A stretch of DNA of 30,617 bases from a virus. Taxonomy: Duplodnaviria > Caudoviricetes. The stretch lies in the IMG/VR virus record IMGVR_UViG_3300020235_000165, positions 1 through 30,617 of that record. One strand, written 5' to 3'. Each line of letters opens with the position of its first letter. Positions within the stretch are counted from its first letter, which is position 1. A program made the position numbers and the translations under genes. Of this stretch, positions 5,087 to 29,648 are shown piece after piece. A model generated the notes under the pieces. The model saw only the letters and a program-made list of their open reading frames with translations, did not search any database and was not told the DNA's origin.

Positions 5087-6037
5087 TCAGGCTCCGTTCA
5101 GACGACCCTGGAACTTCGAACCGCTTACGGTCAGGTTTCCAGCCCAAGCCAGAATCTGTACCTCAGCGTCTTGGTTCGTTGCGTACCGACGATTGGGCGA
5201 GAGCGGAACCATATTCCGTTTCGCATGTGGACGGTAGTGGAGATAGTCAGTATTCAACCAGAAACTGGTGCTGGCTGGACATTGACCTCCGATACCACCG
5301 TCGAGACACACATCGGCGTCCATGTACTTAAGGGTAGGGAAGCCAAGCTTGCCCACTTCAGGTGACATGAATCGTTGGTGCTGCTGCAGACTCTCAACAT
5401 ACAGAATCCACAGCAAGTTATCCACCATGATAAGGTCAGGGCGGTCGTTGCCACGAACCAGATTAGACCACATAGTGTTGAACAGCGTTTGGATGTTGCC
5501 ACTGGTCGCCGTAGTCGTATTCACATACGGAACCCAGAATGCCCATGTACCTCGAGCGATACCTCCATAAGTCCCGGTTCCAATAATGGCAGCATCTAAA
5601 CCATCTATCTGCTTACCACTAAACCCGGTTCCATCAGAGTATAGGCCGAGCGACATGTTGTTCGCCATTGTCTTTTCGGCAATTGAGAGACGACTGTCCA
5701 TCAGGTCAATCATCTTTTCCTTGCCAGCGTTCTGGAGCATTTCCAGACCAGACATGACGACCGGAGCCGCACACTGCTTGATGTCATATTCGGCTGCAGA
5801 AATAACATCACTTACGCCAACGGGTAGGACGTCGTACCCGCTATACCAACCGAAGTTCTGGTTCTCAGCAAAGCTGAGTTCCTGAAGGATTTTGTTACCA
5901 CCAGAGAACGTTTTCATGTTCCCATTCATGGACAGTTTCTTCAGAACGGCATTGTTGTTTGTGACATTATCAGCAACCTTCTTGCTACGATTTTCAATCG
6001 TAGTAGCGAGGATATCGCTAATGTTTGGGAAGGCCAT
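5087..6037 (-). CDS. Major capsid protein
   Basis: 316 aa starting MAFPNISDILATTIENRSKKVADNVTNNNA, typical of a widespread podovirus capsid family. It follows the scaffold and has its own promoter, a GAGGA SD and a terminator. Confidence 0.85.
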   Translation of the reverse strand: MAFPNISDILATTIENRSKKVADNVTNNNAVLKKLSMNGNMKTFSGGNKILQELSFAENQNFGWYSGYDVLPVGVSDVISAAEYDIKQCAAPVVMSGLEMLQNAGKEKMIDLMDSRLSIAEKTMANNMSLGLYSDGTGFSGKQIDGLDAAIIGTGTYGGIARGTWAFWVPYVNTTTATSGNIQTLFNTMWSNLVRGNDRPDLIMVDNLLWILYVESLQQHQRFMSPEVGKLGFPTLKYMDADVCLDGGIGGQCPASTSFWLNTDYLHYRPHAKRNMVPLSPNRRYATNQDAEVQILAWAGNLTVSGSKFQGRLNGA

Positions 6038-7603: not shown

Positions 7604-9695
7604 CTCTTTCCTTCTTCCTTGCCAAATCAGCCTTAACTTCTTCAACATAAGTGGCTACTGAACCCTTAGCCTCGTCTACAATAGTATCTATCATGCCCTC
7701 AGCCTGCGACTGCCGTATTCCCTCATCTGCCTGAACAGTTTCTTCCAGCACATTTAGCTCACCTGTAACAAATATCTTCTTCATATCCTGTTCAAAGTCA
7801 GCCAGCATTTTCTCCATATCTCCGCCGAACTTAGTTTGCAGCTCTTCCATCTTACTTTGATGCTTCGCCTGCTCAGCCTCCATCTTATTCTGGTGCTTCT
7901 GCTGCTCGGCCTGCATGTTAGCCTCAGATTTCGCCTTCTCTGCTGCAATTTTCGGGTCTTCTGGCTCCTGCTTCGGCGGGGCTTTAAACATTTCGTCAAG
8001 GGCTTTATCTATCACGCCCTCAATTTCCTGGCTACCCTTGAATCCAGCAAGTCCCCATTTCAGTAACTGTACGAGGACAGGTCCTGCTTCGGGGGCTTCC
8101 TTGACTAAGCCTGACCCGGCTTGGAGGAACGTACTCAGGGCGGTGAGGTACTCTGTCCGCTCACTGCGTAGCTGAGCATAGTCAACCATAGCCACCGACT
8201 CAGCTTTAACTTCAACTCGCCATAGCCCAAAATCGGAGGACTTAATAAGCTGGATGGCCGGCTCTGCCATCTCCGCATCATTCGTATACTGTATATTAGA
8301 CTGTTTGGCTATAGTCTCAGGTTGGAAGTGCTTAGATATAACCTCGGCCTTTAGCAGCATCAAACCAGTGGCGAAATTGGCGAACTCATCCTGAAGTGCC
8401 TGGATACGGATACTACCGAACTTAGCCTTCAGCTTGTCACTCGCAGCAGCCGTGTACTGGTCGCTAGACCCCCGCATGATATCAGCGAGGCCTGTAATCT
8501 GGTGGAGCAGCGCAATGTTTTCATCACGTAACTCGCGGAGCTGGTTAAGAACACCTGCTACCTCACCAACAGGATACCAATCCATTACTCCCTTCAACCC
8601 ACCCTTCTCAGCCAGAACTGCCCAACTATCTACAGGTATGAGCTCATTCTCCAGCCCCTCCTTAAGAATACGTTGGAGTTCGCCACATTGCTTGTCATAT
8701 ACACCTACGACCTTAATAGCCCGCGTGATGTTCGCTATGCGCGTCTCAAGCCGGTCAATTTCATTATATAAGTCTTGCGCCATACAAAAATCTGGTTTCG
8801 GCATGAACAAACTGGTCGTCACATTTGCAACCATTGGCGTAGGAGTAGGATAGAACCCATGTAACTCTAGGGGGTCATCCTTTTCATCCAATAGCTGGTC
8901 ACAGCCCTTTGTCCACCAATAGACCTTATTATCACCTTCGTGCCAAATTTCCCAAACTTCAGCTTCTTCTGTAAGCGAGGTAAAATCAGAATCTGTGCTT
9001 TCATATGATTCCTCAGAGTAAACCTTTCGCTTGCTATACTCCGCTTGATTAGCTGCGTCCTCACCGAACCTAGCCTCCATAGCCTCCTTATCCATATAGC
9101 TCTTAAAGGCTTCCCACCGACGTTCCCCCCATGTGCGAGTCCATGACCACAGGTAATCCCGCCAGTGAATATAATCTATGGAGGCATTTTCCCACAGAAG
9201 TTGCCCCTCAACCTCAGTTACTTCCCCGTCTTCGCCCTCCACTTCCATCATTTCAGCTTCATACTCATATCGAACCCGAGCAGTGCCGAGTCCTGGTATT
9301 AACCGATCTTGAAGTGCTTGACGTAAAACATCGGGGATATTTTCTCCAGGGTCCTCAATGGAGTTATTCAGCATACGGCCGAGCATAAGGCTGGCGACGC
9401 GGGCTTGGTCGTCATCTGAGTCGGCATGTTTTCGGGTAACGTCTACTTTCGGCAGTTTGCCGAACAGCATGGAGCTTACTATAGTGATATTAGCGTGGAA
9501 GAGATTTAGCTTGGCTACTTCGTAGTCGCCATCAGTCTCCCCCTGCGTTTTACGATTATCCAAGTAACGATCGTTAACTTGATCCCCCTGCTTATGGAAC
9601 CTTCGCACCATTTTCTGAGCAGCTTCGATCTCCCTTGACCACCGGTCGGCTGGAGTTTCCCGTTCGGTGACGTCCTCAGATTCTTCGTGAGCCAT
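7593..9695 (-). CDS. Portal protein (podovirus-type, long C-terminal coiled-coil)
   Basis: 700 aa directly downstream of TerL, with a Q/E/K-rich helical C-terminal barrel. Confidence 0.85.
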   Translation of the reverse strand: MAHEESEDVTERETPADRWSREIEAAQKMVRRFHKQGDQVNDRYLDNRKTQGETDGDYEVAKLNLFHANITIVSSMLFGKLPKVDVTRKHADSDDDQARVASLMLGRMLNNSIEDPGENIPDVLRQALQDRLIPGLGTARVRYEYEAEMMEVEGEDGEVTEVEGQLLWENASIDYIHWRDYLWSWTRTWGERRWEAFKSYMDKEAMEARFGEDAANQAEYSKRKVYSEESYESTDSDFTSLTEEAEVWEIWHEGDNKVYWWTKGCDQLLDEKDDPLELHGFYPTPTPMVANVTTSLFMPKPDFCMAQDLYNEIDRLETRIANITRAIKVVGVYDKQCGELQRILKEGLENELIPVDSWAVLAEKGGLKGVMDWYPVGEVAGVLNQLRELRDENIALLHQITGLADIMRGSSDQYTAAASDKLKAKFGSIRIQALQDEFANFATGLMLLKAEVISKHFQPETIAKQSNIQYTNDAEMAEPAIQLIKSSDFGLWRVEVKAESVAMVDYAQLRSERTEYLTALSTFLQAGSGLVKEAPEAGPVLVQLLKWGLAGFKGSQEIEGVIDKALDEMFKAPPKQEPEDPKIAAEKAKSEANMQAEQQKHQNKMEAEQAKHQSKMEELQTKFGGDMEKMLADFEQDMKKIFVTGELNVLEETVQADEGIRQSQAEGMIDTIVDEAKGSVATYVEEVKADLARKKERDAD

Positions 9696-11577: not shown

Positions 11578-12032
11578 TGTATTTCACCTACAATTTCGAA
11601 GTGTCCCAAATCCTGAAATGTTTGGTCGTCCATAATAATTTCGTCCATATCCCAATTCCCGCCCCATCGCACAGCGATGCCCTCGTCCGCACAGGCCATC
11701 TCAAATGCTCCCGCTAAGTGGATAAATGCTTTATGATCTTCCCACGGAATTTGAACGCGCTGCTCCGTGTTCCACGGGGCTATATCTATCGCACCGGCGC
11801 GGCGGCCACTCCCTCGCTGGAGTATAATACCGTCAGCGTCGCGATTATGCTTAGAATCAGGCCAGCGTTTCTTAGAAACGCCCTCGACGAACAGTTCGTT
11901 TTGTTCTTCTGCATACCGAGCTCCAGAGAGTACAGCAAAATCTCTGATTTTGAGTACGCATTGCGCAGCTCTACCAAGACGTACGTCTATCGTAGATAGT
12001 ACGTTCTGCGATTTTGTACCAAATTTATTCAT
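11574..12032 (-). CDS. Endolysin, peptidase M15 (L-Ala-D-Glu peptidase-like)
   Basis: Probable start MNKFGTKSQNVL at 12032. Motifs R..EEQ..L, SKH, AIDIAP, RWGGNWD and DLGHFE carry the Zn ligands H-D-H. Confidence 0.88.
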   Translation of the reverse strand: MNKFGTKSQNVLSTIDVRLGRAAQCVLKIRDFAVLSGARYAEEQNELFVEGVSKKRWPDSKHNRDADGIILQRGSGRRAGAIDIAPWNTEQRVQIPWEDHKAFIHLAGAFEMACADEGIAVRWGGNWDMDEIIMDDQTFQDLGHFEIVGEIQ

Positions 12033-12408: not shown

Positions 12409-12767
12409 TGGTGATGCTCTCGTTCTATCCTCTCCGCTGTTGACTGTCGCCGTCCCATATCGTCAAGGCGTTTGCCTAGCTTTATATCCCCCTCCTTACT
12501 AGCTACTTCAACAGACGATATACGGCGATGTATGTTCACCACTTCACCTTGATATATTTCCACAGGAACGTATAGCTCCTCTTCAATACTTGCGACGCGC
12601 TGCTCTAATACTGCGTCGGCAGCATTATCGTCATACATATACTGCTGCATCTGGTTCCATGCACCGAAGAGTGACACGCCTAGCACTAAGAGAAAAGGTC
12701 CCGAAAACTGATTAACTGCGTTTAAAAAGGAGCCAAGTTTCCCTACCCTTTCACCGTCCTTATGCAT
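12405..12767 (-). CDS. Single-TM coiled-coil protein (lysis-associated?)
   Basis: ATG 12767 follows a GAGGAG SD. One TM (FSGPFLLVLGVSLFGAW) is followed by heptad-like helices. Confidence 0.6.
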   Translation of the reverse strand: MHKDGERVGKLGSFLNAVNQFSGPFLLVLGVSLFGAWNQMQQYMYDDNAADAVLEQRVASIEEELYVPVEIYQGEVVNIHRRISSVEVASKEGDIKLGKRLDDMGRRQSTAERIEREHHQ

Positions 12768-13098
12768 CGTGCTCCTCAAACTCAGCTTCTAAAACTTCAC
12801 CATCTAGGACGGTACGTGGTATTGAATGTATGATTTTTTGTTTCGTATTTCCCAGGTTGAAGTCCTGGCTCGCGGCAGTCGGCATAAGCTTAGAGTAAAG
12901 CTTGTAAAACTCGCCTTCATTAGTGTGAGCCCAGTGAGCTAGACGGGGTGTCCCGCCGATAAGCTCAAATGCGTCGTGGAACGCAGCCGCTACCATCTTA
13001 CGGTTTATCTCGCGTGGGATGTGTTGAACTTTGTTCAACACGTCGCCCATCTCTTTCAATTCCTCAGGAACTACGAGATCGAAATTAAACTCATCCAT
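12760..13098 (-). CDS. terS: Terminase small subunit (putative)
   Basis: AAFHDAFELIGGTPRLAHWAHTNEGEFYKLYSKLMP matches a common TerS pattern. First gene of the packaging operon. Confidence 0.7.
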   Translation of the reverse strand: MDEFNFDLVVPEELKEMGDVLNKVQHIPREINRKMVAAAFHDAFELIGGTPRLAHWAHTNEGEFYKLYSKLMPTAASQDFNLGNTKQKIIHSIPRTVLDGEVLEAEFEEHDA

Positions 13099-13104
13099 GT
13101 GCGC

Positions 13105-13133
13105 AGTGTACCACACGAAGTATGTTCATGCAA
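13105..13133 (-). promoter_or_regulatory. sigma70-type promoter of the terS/lysis/terL operon
   Basis: TTGCAT-N17-TACACT with TG extension; the -10 ends 6 nt before ATG 13098. Confidence 0.7.
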
Positions 13134-13265
13134 GCGTGAGTCATGCCGCTCTGCAGCATGTTTTTCGACGCACCGTGGCTATAGGGGTGGAGTGATTGTT
13201 TTTGTGTTTGTGAATTTAAAACGTCAGGGGGGTACTTGTTTTTTGCAGTGCAGCTAACGCAACGC

Positions 13266-13293
13266 AAAAACAAGCCCCGCGTTGCGGGGCTTG
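13266..13293 (-). terminator. Rho-independent terminator of the 79-aa gene
   Basis: Minus strand CAAGCCCCGC-AAC-GCGGGGCTTG followed by TTTTT. Confidence 0.85.
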
Positions 13294-13313
13294 CATTGTA
13301 CCGCGTTTTATGC

Positions 13314-13553
13314 TTACGCTTTGCACAGCCACTTGCGCCGTATTGCATACCCCGTAAAAGTAGTATGGTTACGGGGTTTAAGCAGCGCGGTTATTTGCGC
13401 CGCCGTTAAGCCCTTGGGGCTTGCCTGTAATGCCTTTGTTACTATAGCCCACGTTGCGGCGTTACCTTGCGCCGTGTTTTTAGCAGGGTTATATGGCCGC
13501 TTTACATTAACAATATAAAGCGGTGCCTTTTGTACTGCTTGGGGTTGTGCCAT
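13314..13553 (-). CDS. Small basic protein lacking Asp/Glu, putative DNA-binding; paralog of 15073..15312
   Basis: Has its own promoter, AAAAGGT RBS and terminator. Shares (K/R)PYNP...N..TWA.(I/V)...L...H..F.GY..R with 15073..15312. Confidence 0.8.
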   Translation of the reverse strand: MAQPQAVQKAPLYIVNVKRPYNPAKNTAQGNAATWAIVTKALQASPKGLTAAQITALLKPRNHTTFTGYAIRRKWLCKA

Positions 13554-13598
13554 AACAATTACCTTTTAAGCTACATGTAGCAACACGCTACATTGCCC

Positions 13599-13627
13599 AC
13601 TTTAAAGCATAACTGTTACAATAGCAA
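13599..13627 (-). promoter_or_regulatory. sigma70-type promoter of the 79-aa gene
   Basis: TTGCTA-N17-TAAAGT. Confidence 0.55.
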
Positions 13628-13665
13628 CCCCCTTATGTTGCAACGCAACATACACCCGCCCGTCG

Positions 13666-13818
13666 TCGGATGTCTGACTTAGCTTGGTTAGGTTCAGACT
13701 CAGACGTCAGACTTCTGACTGGTTAGACTTGCATCCGACAGTTACCTGTGCTTGTGGTACGCTCTGATTCAGAGCGTATCAGACTTCCGACTCAGACCTC
13801 TGACTAGGGGTCATCTGA
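13666..13818. repeat. Array of 14 TCNGA(C) short repeats
   Basis: TCNGA at 13666, 13673, 13694, 13700, 13707, 13714, 13734, 13763, 13769, 13779, 13786, 13792, 13799 and 13814. Includes the palindrome TACGCTCTGA-T-TCAGAGCGTA (13758-13778). Confidence 0.9.
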
Positions 13819-13824
13819 TTTCCT

Positions 13825-14103
13825 GGTAACAAGGTAACGTTCTTATGGGGGGTAAAATTGCTTTACGTAGGAAATATATATATTTACACCTATTTAATAA
13901 ATAGGAAAAACTTTGTTACCTTGTTACCTTTTGCTCAGAATGGGGCTACCAGTGGTCTGAGCTAGGTAACATCCAAGGTAACAAAGTACGGTTCTGCATG
14001 TTACCATCAGACTGAATCAGCCCTACTTTGTTACCTGATGTTCGACTAATGGCTTGCCGCAAGCCAACATCTGCCCTTAGTCAACTAATACTTTGTTACC
14101 TGA
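13825..14103. repeat. GGTAAC/GTTACC iterons around an AT-rich core; putative replication origin
   Basis: GGTAACAAGGTAAC (13825-38) and its exact reverse complement GTTACCTTGTTACC (13915-28) flank AAATATATATATTT and CCTATTTAATAAATAGG. TACTTTGTTACCTGA is directly repeated at 14024 and 14089. Confidence 0.7.
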
Positions 14104-14107
14104 CGGG

Positions 14108-14353
14108 CTATTTAACCAGCTTTAGGACACCATATTTCTTAAAGTAATCTTCCGCAGCAGCAGTGTCAAGGTGCATTTGCCGCCCCGCTTCGTGCCAGTC
14201 TGCTAGATTGGCGGCACATTCCTTAATGGTGGCAAATGGTCCTTCGTCGCCCATGTTGGGTTCCATACCACTGGGATTTTCGCGCCAGTACCAGCCGACG
14301 TCGAGTTCAGCGTCGTTGCCCTGTGGGTAGTACTCGATTGTATATGTGTTCAT
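14108..14353 (-). CDS. Hypothetical early protein
   Basis: 81 aa with a GWYW...EGPFAT motif common in small phage proteins. ATGA-coupled to the upstream gene. Confidence 0.7.
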   Translation of the reverse strand: MNTYTIEYYPQGNDAELDVGWYWRENPSGMEPNMGDEGPFATIKECAANLADWHEAGRQMHLDTAAAEDYFKKYGVLKLVK

Positions 14354-14625
14354 GAATCCACCTTTATTACTACGTCATAAAGCCAGTACGTATTCGTACC
14401 GGCCGAAAAATACGCGGCGTGGCCGTCACCCGACTGGCGGCTTAACCATGTCGTCCGCTTACGCTTTGCGTAAGACCACACATTAAATCGCACGTTGCCG
14501 TAGGAGTTACATCGTAGGATGTAACCGCCATTTAAGACTTCCGCCACTTGTATGACGTGCTGGCCGTTGCCCGAATTACGCATAAGGTCACCAACTACTG
14601 CCTTGCGTCTAACCTTTAATAACAC
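14350..14625 (-). CDS. Hypothetical early protein
   Basis: GTG start after an AAGGAG SD, with an extended -10 promoter (TGTGG-TATAAT, 14649-14659) upstream. Confidence 0.65.
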   Translation of the reverse strand: MLLKVRRKAVVGDLMRNSGNGQHVIQVAEVLNGGYILRCNSYGNVRFNVWSYAKRKRTTWLSRQSGDGHAAYFSAGTNTYWLYDVVIKVDS

Positions 14626-14689
14626 TATGATTCTCCTTGCTATACCTTATTATACCACACATCCTGGCTTGTCTCCTAATCTTATTTGT

Positions 14690-14718
14690 TTGCATCGGAC
14701 AACGACCAATGTTACAGT
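14690..14718 (+). promoter_or_regulatory. sigma70-type promoter
   Basis: TTGCAT-N17-TACAGT, divergent from the minus-strand promoter at 14649-59. Confidence 0.6.
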
Positions 14719-14743
14719 TAGGTGTGTATAAAAAGGAACTACC

Positions 14744-14980
14744 ATGTACGAAATACAAATATTGGATGAAGTAAATGGGACTGATGTACGTCACAAGTAC
14801 ACAGACCGTCGTAAGGCACAAATCATATTTCACCGCCTGCGGACGTACCACTGGCAAAAGGAAGTTGTGTTTAACGACTTAGCTAAGAACATCTGCATTG
14901 CCTTTAGCATGGCAGGAAGTCGTAAGCATACCTTGTGCGAAGACCTACGACCAGCCCACAGTGGGAATCGCCGTAAGTAA
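14744..14980 (+). CDS. Hypothetical early protein
   Basis: AAAAGGA SD and upstream promoter. Confidence 0.65.
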   Translation: MYEIQILDEVNGTDVRHKYTDRRKAQIIFHRLRTYHWQKEVVFNDLAKNICIAFSMAGSRKHTLCEDLRPAHSGNRRK

Positions 14981-14981
14981 C

Positions 14982-15010
14982 TTGCATCTACCGTGGACAC
15001 ATGCCATACT
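14982..15010 (+). promoter_or_regulatory. sigma70-type promoter
   Basis: TTGCAT-N17-CATACT with TG extension. Confidence 0.6.
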
Positions 15011-15072
15011 GTATCTACGGTGGGGCAAGCCCATCGTCCCCTAACGGGGTTTCTAAGTTAAAAGGAAATATT

Positions 15073-15312
15073 ATGTCTAAAGAACCAAAGTACAAATTGG
15101 GCGATAAGCCCTATAATCCCAAAGCCGCCCACAACGTGATTACATGGGCAAAAATCAAGCCACTGCTTGAAGCTAAGGGTGGAGTCATAGCTAAATCCCT
15201 ACGGGACGCGTTGGGTGAAGCCGTGGTAGGTGACGAAAACCAGGAATTGCGACCACAGCATAACGACTTCCTGGGGTACATGCTACGTGGACACCACATA
15301 GTCCAGAAGTAA
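15073..15312 (+). CDS. Small protein, paralog of the 79-aa GA/TC-free gene
   Basis: ATG 15073 after AAAAGGA. KPYNPKAAHNVITWAKIKPLL...HNDFLGYMLR. Confidence 0.8.
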   Translation: MSKEPKYKLGDKPYNPKAAHNVITWAKIKPLLEAKGGVIAKSLRDALGEAVVGDENQELRPQHNDFLGYMLRGHHIVQK

Positions 15313-15325
15313 AAGTAAGACGCAC

Positions 15326-15357
15326 AAAAAAGCCGGGGCGAACGCCCCGGCTTTCTT
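15326..15357. terminator. Bidirectional Rho-independent terminator
   Basis: AAAAAAGCCGGGGCG-AA-CGCCCCGGCTTTCTT between convergent genes. Confidence 0.85.
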
Positions 15358-15372
15358 ACTACACCAATCCGC

Positions 15373-15609
15373 TTAGGCGACTTGCTTAAGCGGTTCGATG
15401 TTGGGAAGGGGGTCCCCATTGTGGTGATTGCGGGTTAATTCCGTAGTCAGGTCGCCCGCTATGTGTAGGTAAACCGACAGGTCGTAAATTGCCAGTTCGA
15501 AATCCGCAAGCTTGGACGGGTCGTCGGCAAGTTTAATGGCCGCGTCCAGTCCCTTAGTTGCGCGTTGTACGCGGTCTTTAATCGCGTCTAAATGTGTTTT
15601 TTGGTTCAT
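15373..15609 (-). CDS. Hypothetical helical protein
   Basis: AAAAGGA SD; promoter TTGCAT-N17-CACACT at 15637-15665 on the minus strand. Confidence 0.7.
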   Translation of the reverse strand: MNQKTHLDAIKDRVQRATKGLDAAIKLADDPSKLADFELAIYDLSVYLHIAGDLTTELTRNHHNGDPLPNIEPLKQVA

Positions 15610-15680
15610 GACTATCCTTTTATGTAGGTACTATGTAGTGTGCCACGGCCAGCCCTCGGATGCAACAGCGGGGCAGGGAC

Positions 15681-15709
15681 TTGCCCTGGACGTGCGTCCG
15701 GGCTATACT
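15681..15709 (+). promoter_or_regulatory. sigma70-type promoter
   Basis: TTGCCC-N17-TATACT, back-to-back with the minus-strand promoter at 15637-65. Confidence 0.6.
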
Positions 15710-15736
15710 TAACTGTAGCAATTAAAGGACATAGTT

Positions 15737-15931
15737 ATGAAAATCAAAGCGTATTGGATGGTCTATGTATGGCCTGCAAATAGTCTTGACGACTGGCACT
15801 TTGCGGCGGAAGTCTTGCCTACCATGTGGTCAGTAATCAAGTTAATATTCAAGTTATGGTGGGACAACAGTGGCGACCGTTATGCCATTGTTAGACACGT
15901 TACCGACGACGACAGCATACAAAGGTTCTAA
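15737..15931 (+). CDS. Hypothetical protein
   Basis: AAAGGA SD, 64 aa. Confidence 0.6.
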   Translation: MKIKAYWMVYVWPANSLDDWHFAAEVLPTMWSVIKLIFKLWWDNSGDRYAIVRHVTDDDSIQRF

Positions 15932-15932
15932 T

Positions 15933-16205
15933 ATGAACGTAGTGTTAAGATGTAAAAACTGGGAAACGGAACAGCATAAGGACCACCATCAAGACTTTGG
16001 TGATTACCATTTGGAAATGGATGTACGGGGTACTGACCTCGACATACTGGATTGGCGCAGTGTTAAGCGACTAGGAACGTATGTGGAATACACCATAAAG
16101 CCGGGAACCAGTATTTGGGACCTGATGCGGCTGTGGGAACAGCTAGGCGATACCAAGTGGTTTTACGAAATAAGGGTAACGCACGACACTAAAATTTGGT
16201 CTTAG
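15933..16205 (+). CDS. Hypothetical protein
   Basis: ATG 15933 immediately follows the upstream stop, with an AAAGG SD. Confidence 0.6.
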   Translation: MNVVLRCKNWETEQHKDHHQDFGDYHLEMDVRGTDLDILDWRSVKRLGTYVEYTIKPGTSIWDLMRLWEQLGDTKWFYEIRVTHDTKIWS

Positions 16206-24558: not shown

Positions 24559-25897
24559 CTTAATGATGCAACAGGCTGCCCTCGGCCTGTTTATGAAGCC
24601 CGGACTTGGAAAGACTAGTACAGTTCTTGCCGCATTTAAGATTCTTAAAAGTAAGGGACTAATCAGTAAAATGCTATTGATAGCCCCGTTGCGCCCGATG
24701 TATAATGTCTGGCCGCAAGAAATAGAAAAGTGGAGTACATTTCATGGAATCACTTATAGCATTATCCACGGAGATAAGGAAACCGGTCTTTCCAATGATG
24801 CTGACATTTACATCATTAACCCAGAGGGACTTCTTTGGTTGTTTGACCCAAAATTTAAGCGTTTTGACCCAGAGCGATACGATATCCTCTGTGTTGATGA
24901 GAGCACTAGATTCAAAAACTCTCAATCAAAACGCTTTAAGTTACTCCGTAAGCGAATTCCCTACTTCAAGAGACGATGGATTCTTACAGGCTCTCCACAA
25001 CCTCGGGGAATTATGGATTTGTTCTCCCAAATATACATTCTTGATGACGGTAACTCCTTGGGACGATACATCACGCACTTTCGAAATAAGTATTTCTATC
25101 AACCAAACCCGTATGGAAAACAGTATGAATATGTACCCCATGACTGGGCATTTGCTGATATTGTGGAACGAATAGACCCATTAGTTATTCAAATAAATAC
25201 TGAAGACCACCTACAGATGCCCGAACTAATACGGGTCAATACAGTAGTTAGTCTTCCAGACTATGCTAGGGGGATATATGAACAGGTTGAAGATGATTTT
25301 ATTGCTAGAGTCGAGGAAGGGGTTATTGTCGCCCAGAACGCCGCAGCCGCAGGGACTAAGTGCCGCCAGATTGCGAACGGCGCGGTGTATATCGAAACAG
25401 GAGAGGTTCCTAAGAGTAGTAAGCGAGAATACGAAGTAATACATGACACTAAGATTGAAGCTTTGAAAGACTTAATAGAAGAGATAGAAGGACCGGTCAT
25501 AGTGGCCTACGAATTCCGCCATGACGTTGAGCGTATACTTGAAGTTTTCCCTAACGCCAGTGTTATCGGCGGGGGTACATCAGCCAAGAAGGGTAGCGAG
25601 ATCATTGAAGCATTTAACAGGGGCGAGGTTGACATGCTAATAGGTCATCCCGCCAGCATGGGGCATGGGTTGAACCTCCAAGCTGCTTGCTCTACTGTTA
25701 TATTCTTTGGTATACCTTGGAATTTCGAATATTATGAACAACTTATCGGGCGAGTCTGGCGGCAGGGGCAGGCAGCGGAAACGGTCATGGTGTACCATAT
25801 AGTGTGTGCTGGCACACTTGATGAAAAAGTAATACAAGTGCTCCAGGGAAAGGAACGTAGTCAAAAGCGATTATTGGAGGCACTAAGTGATAAGTGA
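24515..25897 (+). CDS. SNF2-family helicase
   Basis: PHSYQ, PGLGKT, DEST, LTGSP, HGLNLQ, QLIGRVWRQGQ. Confidence 0.9.
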   Translation: MAEWNPHSYQVRAISLMMQQAALGLFMKPGLGKTSTVLAAFKILKSKGLISKMLLIAPLRPMYNVWPQEIEKWSTFHGITYSIIHGDKETGLSNDADIYIINPEGLLWLFDPKFKRFDPERYDILCVDESTRFKNSQSKRFKLLRKRIPYFKRRWILTGSPQPRGIMDLFSQIYILDDGNSLGRYITHFRNKYFYQPNPYGKQYEYVPHDWAFADIVERIDPLVIQINTEDHLQMPELIRVNTVVSLPDYARGIYEQVEDDFIARVEEGVIVAQNAAAAGTKCRQIANGAVYIETGEVPKSSKREYEVIHDTKIEALKDLIEEIEGPVIVAYEFRHDVERILEVFPNASVIGGGTSAKKGSEIIEAFNRGEVDMLIGHPASMGHGLNLQAACSTVIFFGIPWNFEYYEQLIGRVWRQGQAAETVMVYHIVCAGTLDEKVIQVLQGKERSQKRLLEALSDK

Positions 25898-26239: not shown

Positions 26240-26527
26240 ATGGCTGTAAATCTGGCTCCCGGTGAAAGTACCGGTAAAGGTAAAGACGACAAGAAAGATG
26301 AAAAGAAAGATAGCACTACCCGTTCGCGTTTCGCAACTACATACCCTGAAACCGATAAGATCACCCTCCTGGTGACGGAGAACCCTAAGAAACAGGGCTC
26401 CAAAGCACGTGAACGATTTGAAGGCTATACCGGCGCGAAAACCGTTGGAGAAGCTCTCAAGAATGGCGTAACGTATGCAGATATTGCTTACGACGTTGGC
26501 CGTAAGTTTATCAAAGTCGGCTTATAA
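26240..26527 (+). CDS. Small putative DNA-binding protein
   Basis: Strong GAGGAG SD. NPKKQGSKARERFEGY..AKTVGEAL..G.T..DIAYD..RKFI. Confidence 0.7.
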   Translation: MAVNLAPGESTGKGKDDKKDEKKDSTTRSRFATTYPETDKITLLVTENPKKQGSKARERFEGYTGAKTVGEALKNGVTYADIAYDVGRKFIKVGL

Positions 26528-26623
26528 AGAACACGGTCTGGTCCACCACATTAACGGACAAGTGGCGGGGGTGTCATGCCCCTCGCCGCGTTACTGGATA
26601 ATAAGAAGGGGTGGAAGAGTGAG

Positions 26624-27397
26624 ATGAAGGTACTGATATGCACGTACGGACGTGCTAATAAGCAGACGACCTGGAACAGCTTGCCACAAGATATAAAAGA
26701 GATAACAACTCTTGTGGTTCAGGACAAAGAAAAAGACCTGTACCGTCCTTACCCAACTCTCGTTCTTCCACCGAATATCCAAACAATCGGTCCTACCCGC
26801 CAGTGGCTAGTTGACCACATATTTGAAAAGAAAGTTATTATGTTTGATGACGACCTTGTATTCGCCACGCGGCGTGAAGACCAACCTACCAAGTTCGTGC
26901 CCTCCACAACAAGTGACATAGAGGCTATGCTGAAGGAAATAGTAACCTTCCTCAACATATACGCAGCCGTCGGGGTAGCCCCGAGGGAAGGGGCGAACAG
27001 GGTTATAGAGCCATACAGATACTGTACTCGTATGATGCGCGTACTAGGGTTCAGGTTTGACGTACTACGGGAAGAGAATATACGCTTTGACCGAATACCC
27101 GTAATGGAGGACTTTGATGCCACCCTCCAGCTTATGCGGCTCGGGTATGAAAACGTATTACTGAATAGATGGGTGAACAACCAAGCTGGAAGTGATGTTA
27201 GCGGAGGCTGCTCAACCTACCGTACCCCAGAAATCCAGGAGCAGGCAGCGATGGGCTTGGCCGAACTGCACCCTGGATTCGTTACCGTAGTTACCAAGAA
27301 GACCAAGACTTCTTGGGGTGGAAAGGAGCGCAAAGATGTTAGAGTCCAATGGAAGCAAGCTTTCGCCAGTGCAGGAAAAGTTAGTATTCTGGATTAA
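26624..27397 (+). CDS. GT-A fold glycosyltransferase (DNA base-modifying type)
   Basis: ICTYGRA, IGPTRQW, DxD motif MFDDDL, catalytic-type EDFD, GGCS.YR. First enzyme of the modification cluster. Confidence 0.75.
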   Translation: MKVLICTYGRANKQTTWNSLPQDIKEITTLVVQDKEKDLYRPYPTLVLPPNIQTIGPTRQWLVDHIFEKKVIMFDDDLVFATRREDQPTKFVPSTTSDIEAMLKEIVTFLNIYAAVGVAPREGANRVIEPYRYCTRMMRVLGFRFDVLREENIRFDRIPVMEDFDATLQLMRLGYENVLLNRWVNNQAGSDVSGGCSTYRTPEIQEQAAMGLAELHPGFVTVVTKKTKTSWGGKERKDVRVQWKQAFASAGKVSILD

Positions 27398-28196
27398 TGA
27401 GCGAGAGCATATTCGCACAAGAAAAAGAGGGGGTATGTCCAAGCCTTGGACTGAGGACCCCACCCTACAAACCGTCTACTTCTGCAACGTACACCGCGAA
27501 GATGACAAGGTAACTCAGTGGATTAGAAACAACATACCCTACCAAGAGGATGGGCTGCACGAGTGGCGTATGATGGTCGCCCGTATGTTCAACTGGCCGC
27601 CGACATTAAAAGCTATGGATCTTATTGCTTTCTCTACTAAGTTAGAAGAGAAAATTGTTTATGGCCGACTAATATCAACTATCAACTCAATACGGGAAAG
27701 CGGAGAGAAGGTATGGGGAAATGCCTACGTGGTAACAACGTGCGGTAAGCGTATGGACAAGGGTGAGTACTGCTCACAAGCCCTAGGAGCAGCTTTCGCT
27801 AACCCCCCGCACGTTGCCCCTAACAGCACCCTCGCCGCCGCACACAAGCTCATAATGCAGTATCAGGGGTTCGCTTCCTTCATGGCAGCGCAGGTTGTCG
27901 CCGACTTAAAGAACACTATTGACCACCCTCTGGAGGGGGCGGAGGATTGGTACTCGTGGTCTGCTCCCGGACCGGGTAGTATAAGAGGGTTAAATTGGTT
28001 TTTCTATGATGACAAGTTTGGTAAGGTGTCCCCGAAAAGGTTTAATCACTACATAACCCTCGCTTGGGAAATGCTTAAGGGTCACGTGATGCTACTGTGT
28101 ATGCAAGATTTCCAGAACTGCCTGTGCGAGTTTGATAAGTACATGAGAGTCAGCACTGGAGCTGGCCGTAGTAAGAGGAAGTACAATGGAAAATAG
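27336..28196 (+). CDS. 5-hydroxymethyluracil DNA kinase-like protein (aGPT-Pplase1/HMUDK helical family)
   Basis: WINERE.I...K..G...PWTEDP.LQ..YFCNV.REDD.VT.WI, RMFNWP, FMAAQVVADL, PGPGS.RGL, QNCLCEFDKY. ATG 27336 follows AAAGGAG. Confidence 0.8.
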   Translation: MLESNGSKLSPVQEKLVFWINEREHIRTRKRGGMSKPWTEDPTLQTVYFCNVHREDDKVTQWIRNNIPYQEDGLHEWRMMVARMFNWPPTLKAMDLIAFSTKLEEKIVYGRLISTINSIRESGEKVWGNAYVVTTCGKRMDKGEYCSQALGAAFANPPHVAPNSTLAAAHKLIMQYQGFASFMAAQVVADLKNTIDHPLEGAEDWYSWSAPGPGSIRGLNWFFYDDKFGKVSPKRFNHYITLAWEMLKGHVMLLCMQDFQNCLCEFDKYMRVSTGAGRSKRKYNGK

Positions 28197-29142
28197 AAGC
28201 GTAAGGAATATCCCTAATTTTTTCACGGAAGCCATGTGGCTGCTCGGGGTTTGTGGGGACAAGCAAACCTCTAGGAACGGTAATGTAGTGACTATGATAG
28301 AACCTTGTATATTCAAGGTACATCGACCTGACGAACGTGTGCTGTTTGACCCGCTACGGGATGCTAACCCCTTCTTCCACGTAATGGAGTTCTGCTGGAT
28401 GATGGCGGGGCGGAAGGACGTTAAGTGGATTGAACAGTTTAACTCAGGTCTTAGGGAGTACGCCGAAAATGACGGCACTATTTACGGAGCCTATGGCTAT
28501 CGCTGGCGTAAGCACTTCAGTATAGACCAACTTCTACAGACAGCAAACCAGCTTAATAAAGACCCTCATACTCGCCGAGCAGTTACAGCGATGTGGGACG
28601 CCAAGTGTGACCTCTTTTACAAAAAGGATATACCCTGCAATACTCACATCTATTGGAGGATAGTAGACAGTTACTTGCATATGACTGTCTGTAACAGGAG
28701 TAATGACGCCGTGTGGGGGATGACTGGGGCGAATGCTGTTCACATGACCATGCTACAGGAATGGATGGCTGCCATGACAAACCAGAGGCTCGGTAACTAC
28801 TATGTCATGACGAATAACCTGCACTTATATACCGACCTCCATAGCGAACTACTAAAGCGCACCCCTGTCTTCGACCCCTATGCAGCAGGTGAAGTCAAGC
28901 CGCTTCGTATGTTTAAGTCAGCAGAGGAAGCACTCCTGTTTTTACAAGACGTAGAAAACTTTGTTATGGGACTACCATTCACTAGCCCCTGGATAGTGGA
29001 CGTAGCTGACCCTATACACGACGCATATCTTAATAAGCATATCCGTAAAGGACAAATAGGATACATTGTAGCAACAGACTGGAGAAAGGCATGTCAGGAG
29101 TGGACAGAAAGGCGACCATCATCCCAAGAGTCGGGTTCTTAG
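28186..29142 (+). CDS. Thymidylate-synthase-fold dUMP hydroxymethylase (5hmdUMP synthase)
   Basis: ANPFF, GAYGYRW, TRRAV, catalytic DIPCN, RSND..WG...N (Asn, implying dUMP specificity), NNLHLY. Confidence 0.8.
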   Translation: MENRSVRNIPNFFTEAMWLLGVCGDKQTSRNGNVVTMIEPCIFKVHRPDERVLFDPLRDANPFFHVMEFCWMMAGRKDVKWIEQFNSGLREYAENDGTIYGAYGYRWRKHFSIDQLLQTANQLNKDPHTRRAVTAMWDAKCDLFYKKDIPCNTHIYWRIVDSYLHMTVCNRSNDAVWGMTGANAVHMTMLQEWMAAMTNQRLGNYYVMTNNLHLYTDLHSELLKRTPVFDPYAAGEVKPLRMFKSAEEALLFLQDVENFVMGLPFTSPWIVDVADPIHDAYLNKHIRKGQIGYIVATDWRKACQEWTERRPSSQESGS

Positions 29143-29648
29143 TTAAGCGGTTCCATACTCTTCCAACTATAGTAGAGGAAACCGTAGGTCATCATTCAGC
29201 GAACGTTGCGCTTATCTGTGATATACTTACAGATGGAGAGGCTAGTAAGGAAATCATAATAGCTGCGCTCAAACACGATATACCTGAGCAGTGGACTGGA
29301 GATATCCCCGCCCCCGCTAAGTGGATTGACCCAAATTTTAACGACATGATAAAGAAGGTAGAAAAAAATTGGGCAACGCAAACTGGATATAAGATACCCG
29401 AGCTTGTAGGGGATGACCTGCTAGTTCTTAAGGCCGCTGATATGCTTGACCTCTGTTTTAAGTGTGTAGAGGAGATTACTTTGGGTAATGTGACATTCAT
29501 GCCCATATTTATCAATGGCATTCATTACCTGTCTAAGCTACCATTACAGGGTAAGGTAGCGGGAAACGTAATGGATATATGTAGTGGATTAAAGGCAACT
29601 CTGGGGATAAAGGATGAACCAACAATCATTACCACTCCAACACACTGA
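29091..29648 (+). CDS. HD-domain 5'-deoxynucleotidase (YfbR-like)
   Basis: VKRFH, ETVGHHS, ALKHDIPEQWTGDIPAPAK, LKAADMLD. Confidence 0.8.
   Translation: MSGVDRKATIIPRVGFLVKRFHTLPTIVEETVGHHSANVALICDILTDGEASKEIIIAALKHDIPEQWTGDIPAPAKWIDPNFNDMIKKVEKNWATQTGYKIPELVGDDLLVLKAADMLDLCFKCVEEITLGNVTFMPIFINGIHYLSKLPLQGKVAGNVMDICSGLKATLGIKDEPTIITTPTH

Follow-up and report, generated by a model that had tools for sequence, protein, structure and literature searches.

A GA/TC-free gene cassette recurs among phages with a predicted thymine-hypermodification gene cluster

The window, as we call the whole 30,617-nt stretch of DNA that was analysed, comes from a phage with a podovirus-type capsid protein, the closest relatives of which belong to Stenotrophomonas phage BUCT555 and Myxococcus phage Mx8. 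Two of its regions are considered here: a cassette with one small gene that lies in DNA devoid of the dinucleotides GA and TC, and a row of genes near PolA in which a thymidylate-synthase (TS) homologue, an HMUDK_hel protein, an HD nucleotidase and a TAGT glycosyltransferase occur together (Table 1). The gene next to the cassette probably encodes the small terminase subunit (TerS), a designation that comes from its position, as no family match was found for its product.

Table 1 Features of the window discussed in the text
Feature	Position	Strand	Remarks
Probable small terminase subunit	12760–13116	minus	Located directly before TerL in several relatives
GA/TC-free island	13225–13663		Recount; gap repeated in record L001
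Intrinsic-terminator-like 11-bp stem and T tract, followed by a second hairpin	13270–13294	minus	z −3.09
79-aa basic protein without Asp or Glu	13314–13553	minus	ORF 13553–13314
Ribosome-binding site AAAAGGT, GA-free	13561–13567	minus	
7-bp hairpin where the leader is predicted to start	13575–13593	minus	z 0.37, not significant alone
Divergent promoter-like site TTGCCC-18-TG-TACAAT (9/12), overlapping the predicted promoter	13593–13622	plus	Consensus match only
Predicted sigma70-type promoter TTGCTA-17-TAAAGT (8/12)	13599–13627	minus	Ends 45 nt before the ATG
GA/TC-dense TCAGAC/TCTGA repeat patch adjoining the island	13664–13813		
GGTAAC/GTTACC direct and inverted repeats	13825–14101		Putatively origin-like
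Unpurged paralogue of the island protein	15073–15312	plus	HHalign 95%; ORF called from 15001
Small lysine-rich protein heading the modification cluster	26240–26527	plus	Never purged
TAGT glycosyltransferase (PF20691)	26576–27397	plus	
HMUDK_hel / aGPT-PPlase clade 1 type protein (PF18723)	27318–28196	plus	
Thymidylate-synthase homologue, dUMP hydroxymethylase type	28186–29142	plus	Asn at the specificity site
YfbR-like HD 5′-deoxynucleotidase	29091–29648	plus	

A preliminary description of this DNA had reported that positions 13226–13663 contain neither GA nor TC, where about 55 would be expected. The recount upheld this and placed the gap at 13225–13663 (439 nt, zero GA and zero TC); at the rate of 0.117 GA plus TC per base found across the window, about 51 sites would be expected there. 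The second-longest GA/TC gap in the window measures 41 nt, and the remainder of the genome keeps the two dinucleotides at an observed/expected (o/e) ratio of 0.94–0.95. In a 400-nt scan, the GA/TC hole reached log P −20.4, and the other dinucleotide classes reached −4.0 or weaker. All 48 trinucleotides that contain neither GA nor TC are present in the island at least 8 times each, both strands counted, and the ban is therefore on exactly the dinucleotide. TG/CA is not avoided here (o/e 1.1). An assembly artefact is excluded because a separate record with 99.8% identity (L001) contains the identical 439-nt gap, and because contigs from four public runs belonging to two studies span the island wholly or in part. 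Four variants were found inside the island (13593, 13601, 13602 and 13629), none of which creates a GA or TC. The depth of the island contig in run X1 was 11.1, compared with 4.9–7.8 for seven others among the 8 of 19 pieces listed; depth enrichment over the island was not found in runs X2–X4, and no weight is given to the depth values.

The ban had been described as covering promoter, leader, ribosome-binding site, reading frame and terminator, and all of these predicted elements do lie inside the gap. The ribosome-binding site contains no GA, the protein contains no Asp or Glu, serine is encoded by AGC and phenylalanine by TTT, and the stop codon is TAA. With the protein held fixed and the codon usage of the phage applied, about 17 GA/TC would be expected in the reading frame, and the probability of observing none is 1.2 × 10−10. 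The absence of Asp and Glu among 78 residues has a probability of 9 × 10−6. The non-coding ends of the island are purged as well, both upstream (110 nt, P ~ 1 × 10−6) and downstream (89 nt, P ~ 2 × 10−5). The purge extends to synonymous positions and to non-coding DNA and concerns both strands, which supports selection at the DNA level and not only on the protein, as had been proposed. The flanks, reported as normal, proved not to be simply so: on the promoter side, the adjoining 150 nt contain 28 GA/TC sites, a value at the 99th percentile.

Patches similar to this GA/TC-dense flank lie beside islands in L055, L060, L018, L009, L010, G032 and G029, and GA/TC-dense tandem repeats of the TCAGAC, GATC and GAGATCT types are located within about 300 nt of many islands, without being universal. 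Repeats that resemble the GGTAAC/GTTACC repeats of the window, also origin-like, occur at ~6680–6850 of L011, and TTATGTTAA/AACATAAT repeats surround the cassette in their place in G028, G045, G040 and G031. The early-gene region of the window at 14200–16000 is mildly low in GA/TC, mostly with 15–19 sites per 200 nt versus ~23.

The predicted minus-strand promoter scored under the threshold of the promoter scan, which found two sites versus 4.6 expected by chance. Similar sites also end 45–46 nt upstream of the gene in G001, G043 and G052, and a promoter-like site of this kind is present in 9 of 27 cassettes, compared with 7% of random 150-mers. Hairpins resembling the one in the predicted leader are found in the leaders of four homologues. 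Rfam matched nothing in the island and gave one sub-threshold match elsewhere, at 15322–15419.

The island protein was assigned to no family in Pfam or PHROG, a sequence match in the PDB was not found, and tblastn gave no homologue in cultured phages. Its ESM Atlas matches were all under 0.9, and Foldseek returned nothing at E ≤ 0.001 for either of the two models, which were compared by the order of their elements and by the weak matches they share. The model of the island protein (pLDDT 88) has the order strand-helix-helix-helix-strand. Its best structural match, a weak one, is an RRE domain (VIA Z 6.2, rmsd 2.5, 68 aligned), and many wHTH domains matched weakly at VIA Z 3.6–4.9. On these grounds the protein is predicted to have a winged-helix-like fold, which is a common fold.

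What the preliminary description missed is that the island gene belongs to a family of small proteins that is widespread and includes unpurged paralogues. An all-representative search with the island protein yielded 33 matches, two of which (P0005 and P0019) were repeat-driven false matches and were left out of alignment A1. Asp and Glu are absent from 41 of the 118 members collected, a proportion biased by the acid-free query that seeded the search. The paralogue encoded in the window, 1.4 kb from the island, has nine Asp/Glu residues and a synonymous GA/TC ratio of 0.73. Distant members carry the domain in fusion with a UDG-superfamily domain (P0121 and P0122, from weak Pfam matches below the cut-off) or with T5orf172 (P0114), and these three proteins are candidate modification-reading defence enzymes. 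Such fusions, and indirectly the basic charge of the protein, favour DNA binding as a property of the domain, and the island product is predicted to be a small basic winged-helix-like DNA-binding protein.

Distant paralogy with the cassette protein is possible for the lysine-rich protein that heads the modification cluster. A small protein of this kind is encoded in the same slot, between the helicase and the modification cluster, in 26 other records too, and so in nearly all relatives. A direct link between this ORF and family A2 was looked for and not found. A chain of profile comparisons joins its family to the A5 copies of the cluster (91%), these to the A5 copies of the cassette (99%) and, in the last link, the A5 to the A2 cassette copies (32%); homology between A2 and A5, joined by this chain with its 32% link, is likely. 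Several islands carry a gene of the second subfamily (A5), whose product has the same predicted element order as the first.

The TS homologue contains the motif KDIPC...RSNDAVWGMTGANAVH, as in gp58 of phage M6, and like gp58 it has Asn at the N177 site and Asp, hence not Leu, at the L143 position. Read with the dUMP/dCMP specificity-site criteria set out in the cited part of PMC13326640, these residues point to thymine as the base most likely to be modified. A TS of the dUMP-hydroxymethylase type is shared with M6, ViI, PhiW-14 and SH-Ab 15599, as far as the cited portions of PMC6449724, PMC8989533 and PMC13458397 describe them, and the HMUDK_hel protein is M6 gp55-like (~30% identity). The contexts known for thymidine hypermodification derived from 5-hmdU are, in the same portions, dinucleotides that include TC. 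The M6/ViI pathway, as outlined in the cited part of PMC8989533, has a P-loop 5-HMUDK and ADDT/PPlase2, whereas our phage has TAGT instead and neither of the two was detected. The P-loop 5-hmdU DNA kinase (PF18748) was found in none of five near-complete island records, where the positive control gave no signal either, and no P-loop kinase was matched in Pfam among the 44 ORFs of the window, which is a partial genome. Clade 2 aGPT-PPlase/ADDT (PF18724) was found in none of five near-complete relatives in a search run without a positive control. The M6/ViI-type systems prefer TG over TC, and the cited text of those papers does not mention a purged cassette. The gene set is the one reported for the HTVC023P-type pelagiphages, whose podovirus-type genomes likewise group these four types of gene close to PolA (PMC9599517, cited part); their cluster (TS, aG/PT-PPlase1, 5′-deoxynucleotidase and glucosyltransferase) is described there from sequence only, with no island mentioned in that part.

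Islands were sought in two samples of relatives. In 80 loci picked by their terminase alone and scanned for 300-nt holes, many of them too short to reach the cassette slot, three had GA/TC holes, with gaps of 504, 423 and 526 nt, that fell below log P −8. Each of the three sits on a gene of the family, and none of nine other dinucleotide classes fell below log P −8 in these 80 loci. The second sample started from 80 HMUDK_hel loci and led to 32 records of at least 30 kb, of which three were set aside and 29 were scanned nearly whole. A GA/TC hole at or below log P −8 is present in 11 of these 29 HMUDK_hel+TS records, and ten of the 11 holes cover a small cassette gene in the same slot; one record (G056) has another class, AA/TT, below −8. 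None of nine records without HMUDK_hel has a GA/TC hole of this strength, and the difference between 11/29 and 0/9 gives a one-sided Fisher p of 0.029, which ignores kinship and includes some near-duplicate records. Islands do co-occur with the modification cluster, a point that the preliminary description had proposed to check. Its question whether relatives keep the island is answered with yes for some and no for others, as 18 of the 29 HMUDK_hel records have no strong island. Islands are missing from MW202897, which has TS and TAGT without HMUDK_hel, and from as much of M6 (49 of 59 kb) and PhiJL001 (50 of 64 kb) as was scanned. TAGT was dropped as a requirement because G031, G044 and G046 have islands and no TAGT match.

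The finding is firm and holds generally for this group of phages: islands recur in divergent relatives at the same slot, next to the gene that probably encodes TerS. Among 15 cases, the first site upstream lies 22–261 nt before the start codon and the first site downstream 1–325 nt after the stop codon, with most of these distances at 40–200 nt. The purge runs 199 nt past the family gene in L018 (604–1139) and 325 nt past it in G032 (35396–36180), where a second acid-free ORF of 74 aa is located. In G046 (5107–5885), the promoter region and the 3′ two-thirds of the gene are purged, and GA/TC persists in ~170 nt surrounding the start.

Relatives show the purge to different degrees and gain or lose it readily, which the preliminary description had also missed. 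The synonymous GA/TC ratio of 27 cassette genes ranges from 0 to 1.57 (median 0.55; at most 0.05 in eight), compared with 0.82–1.26 (median 1.0) for 27 small genes linked to the modification cluster, and in all 24 genomes compared the cassette gene has a lower ratio than its cluster-linked counterpart. The coding ratio of the cassette tracks the depletion of its promoter and upstream region (rho 0.90, n = 25). Four records (G002, G030, G034 and G042) have the full TS, HMUDK_hel and TAGT set, yet their cassettes are near-normal. Sister phages with near-identical enzymes differ as well, with ratios of 0 in G028 and G045 versus ~0.75 in G041 and G055; for the sisters G050 and G008 the ratios are 0 and 0.66. 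The modification cluster is therefore not sufficient for an island. In trees of the enzymes, constructed carefully for HMUDK_hel and TAGT and only quickly for TS, purged and unpurged phages are intermixed; as the trees do not sort the phages, no residue was found to explain the purge. Something else, perhaps the host or the activity of the enzymes, sets the purge pressure. The cassettes of G041 (1827–2102) and G055 (25524–25799) are near-identical to those of G028 and G045 and encode a protein that is still almost acid-free, with TC/GA sites present at synonymous positions and in the promoter, possibly a relaxed or half-purged state.

It had also been suggested that the island is the first DNA to enter the cell. 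Of 27 cassettes, 7 are located no more than 1.5 kb from an end of their record, where 2.1 would be expected (P 0.004), and for seven control genes only 1–2 of 22–35 lie that close. This excess is a weak hint at first-entering DNA, and flanking repeats that break assemblies could equally give it.

The explanation that we put slightly above even is that the cassette avoids the phage's own TC-context thymine mark, which lets host RNA polymerase read it. The TS homologue would make hmdUMP, and HMUDK_hel, together with TAGT where present, would turn hmU in TC context into a bulky base, so that the T of 5′-TC-3′ would be marked on both strands. A cassette written without TC or GA would stay unmarked, and host RNA polymerase could read it efficiently on incoming virion DNA. 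Its product would be a pioneer factor: bound to the marked genome, it would open that genome to use by aiding transcription, like T4 MotA, or by shielding the marks. We infer the mark, its TC context, the timing and the job of the protein, and the role as pioneer factor is the weakest step of the mechanism.

The purge spans the predicted promoter, leader, codons and terminator and spares paralogous genes in the same genomes. Escape from a TC-context hmU mark had been one of the two functional models in the preliminary description, and the distribution of islands among relatives (11/29 versus 0/9) together with the dUMP-type TS gives it support of a comparative kind. In the cited parts of the literature, thymine hypermodification is context-specific, at TG or TC (PMC6449724, PMC13458397), a phage T-dioxygenase prefers NTC (PMC13229309), and bulky major-groove groups typically block bacterial RNAP, with glucosyl-hmC templates still transcribed (PMC11550810). 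The reading as TC avoidance is weakened because the characterised systems, as the cited text has it, prefer TG over TC (PMC6449724, PMC13458397), yet TG/CA is unavoided here. A fuller version, which we put forward tentatively and with more doubt than belief, is that a TC-free pioneer cassette near the genome end, often by a TC-dense patch, codes for a protein that recognises hypermodified thymine and so licenses or protects the rest of the marked genome.

The same mark might be avoided on account of another reader, the main alternative, although one that we consider unlikely. The unmarked cassette would then escape modification-dependent host enzymes, such as Brig2-like glycosylases and type IV nucleases, or silencing by its own product, and the product would shield the marked remainder. 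The UDG-like glycosylase Brig2 defends against the thymine-modified phages M6, YuA and Ab18 (10.1101/2025.10.29.685425, cited part), the domain of the island protein occurs fused to UDG-superfamily and T5orf172 domains, the purge of the whole coding region is more than promoter recognition alone needs, and host-dependent pressure would account for the differences between sister phages. However, one intact gene is of little benefit to a linear genome that has been cut at other places, unless that gene is expressed very quickly, and PADLOC matched none of seven proteins. More improbable still is a host factor that attacks plain TC/GA on first-entering DNA independently of the phage mark (an ADP-ribosyltransferase, a TC-specific deaminase or restriction). 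Like a host-driven trait, the purge comes and goes among close relatives, and the excess of cassettes near record ends would agree with such a factor; on the other hand, the nine records without HMUDK_hel have no islands, GA/TC persists outside the island at the o/e ratio given above, and every TC/GA context is gone from the island. The defences that the preliminary description had named in its second model (RM, BREX, DarT and Dnd) read 4–6 nt. That model fits poorly because all TC/GA contexts were removed, without a specific loss of any longer word.

To much the same low degree, we would credit a mark-free zone for replication or packaging, an origin or pac region in which the gene is a passenger. 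The island is located between divergent arms, beside the probable TerS gene, iteron-like repeats and a TC-dense patch, and the depleted stretch in G036 is non-coding, but island edges follow the transcription unit in the 15 cases above, the cassette is ~4 kb away from TerS in G001, G040 and G052, and the GGTAAC repeats of the window fall outside the island. Very improbable, and already largely refuted by the synonymous P and the rarity of Glu-to-Lys changes, is the view that the island is an artefact, that TC-directed deamination left it as a mutational scar, or that it merely follows from a basic protein free of acidic residues. AA/TT does peak at the island in the window (84 per 400 nt), and the family is basic anyway, with many of its members acid-free in a collection seeded by an acid-free query; however, the AA/TT peak is missing at the G001 island, and independent records and runs agree on the gap. 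In 46 non-independent pairs, acid-free homologues mostly have Ala or Gln opposite Glu, with Lys at 3 of 82 positions, and Ala, Asn or Gln opposite Asp. In G028, G045 and G032, the sole GA in the gene belongs to one conserved Glu codon. The rarity of Lys opposite Glu and the retention of this codon therefore indicate selection rather than G-to-A mutation or deamination. The least credible alternative is that the mark sits on the G of GA, as a 7-deazaguanine like that of phage iggy, and not on the T of TC. The DpdA of iggy has a published strict GA target motif (PMC10484667, cited part); against this, the cluster that is present is a thymine one, and neither TGT/DpdA (PF01702; controls 14/14) nor QueC (PF06508; controls 13/14) was found in the five near-complete island records, although a divergent DpdA could escape such a search.

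The cassette bears on the question of how host RNA polymerase starts on heavily decorated phage DNA. That a phage gives up every TC/GA step and all Asp and Glu in one gene points to a cost of its own modification, and the purged cassette singles out the gene by which the phage probably evades that cost. The cluster of TS, HMUDK_hel and TAGT is abundant and biochemically uncharacterised, and the preferred explanation, avoidance of the phage's own mark, makes a sharp prediction for it, namely a TC-context mark, for which the purged and relaxed sisters (G028/G045 and G041/G055) provide natural controls. If the fuller version of that explanation is true, islands would reveal the sequence context of an uncharacterised modification from genome sequence alone, the domain would be a new reader of modified T used by bacterial glycosylases and nucleases too, and thymine-hypermodifying phages would write an epigenetic pattern into their own sequence. 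A literature search over titles and the openings of abstracts, mostly of papers outside subscription, found no description of GA/TC-free cassettes.

As an early DNA-binding factor for a genome with bulky marks in the major groove, T4 MotA (PMC6755090, cited part) offers a functional analogy to the role proposed for the island product. Neither sequence nor fold searches gave a match between MotA and the island protein. In T4 every C carries the mark, and the motA gene is not known to be purged. Local or early purging of a motif and a pioneer gene that protects the rest are known from restriction-site avoidance and T7 gene 0.3. The cassette differs from these in that the motif is a dinucleotide and the purge stays within one transcription unit, rewrites the protein and co-occurs with the phage's own modification genes.

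Two observations concern other parts of these genomes. A stretch of 512 nt without the dinucleotide AT was found in G002 (~13947–14460; the L012 gap) and is probably low-complexity coding sequence. In the window, strain differences form dense clusters at 11649–11847 in the endolysin gene and at 8304–8322 in the portal gene, a pattern that suggests short recombined tracts.
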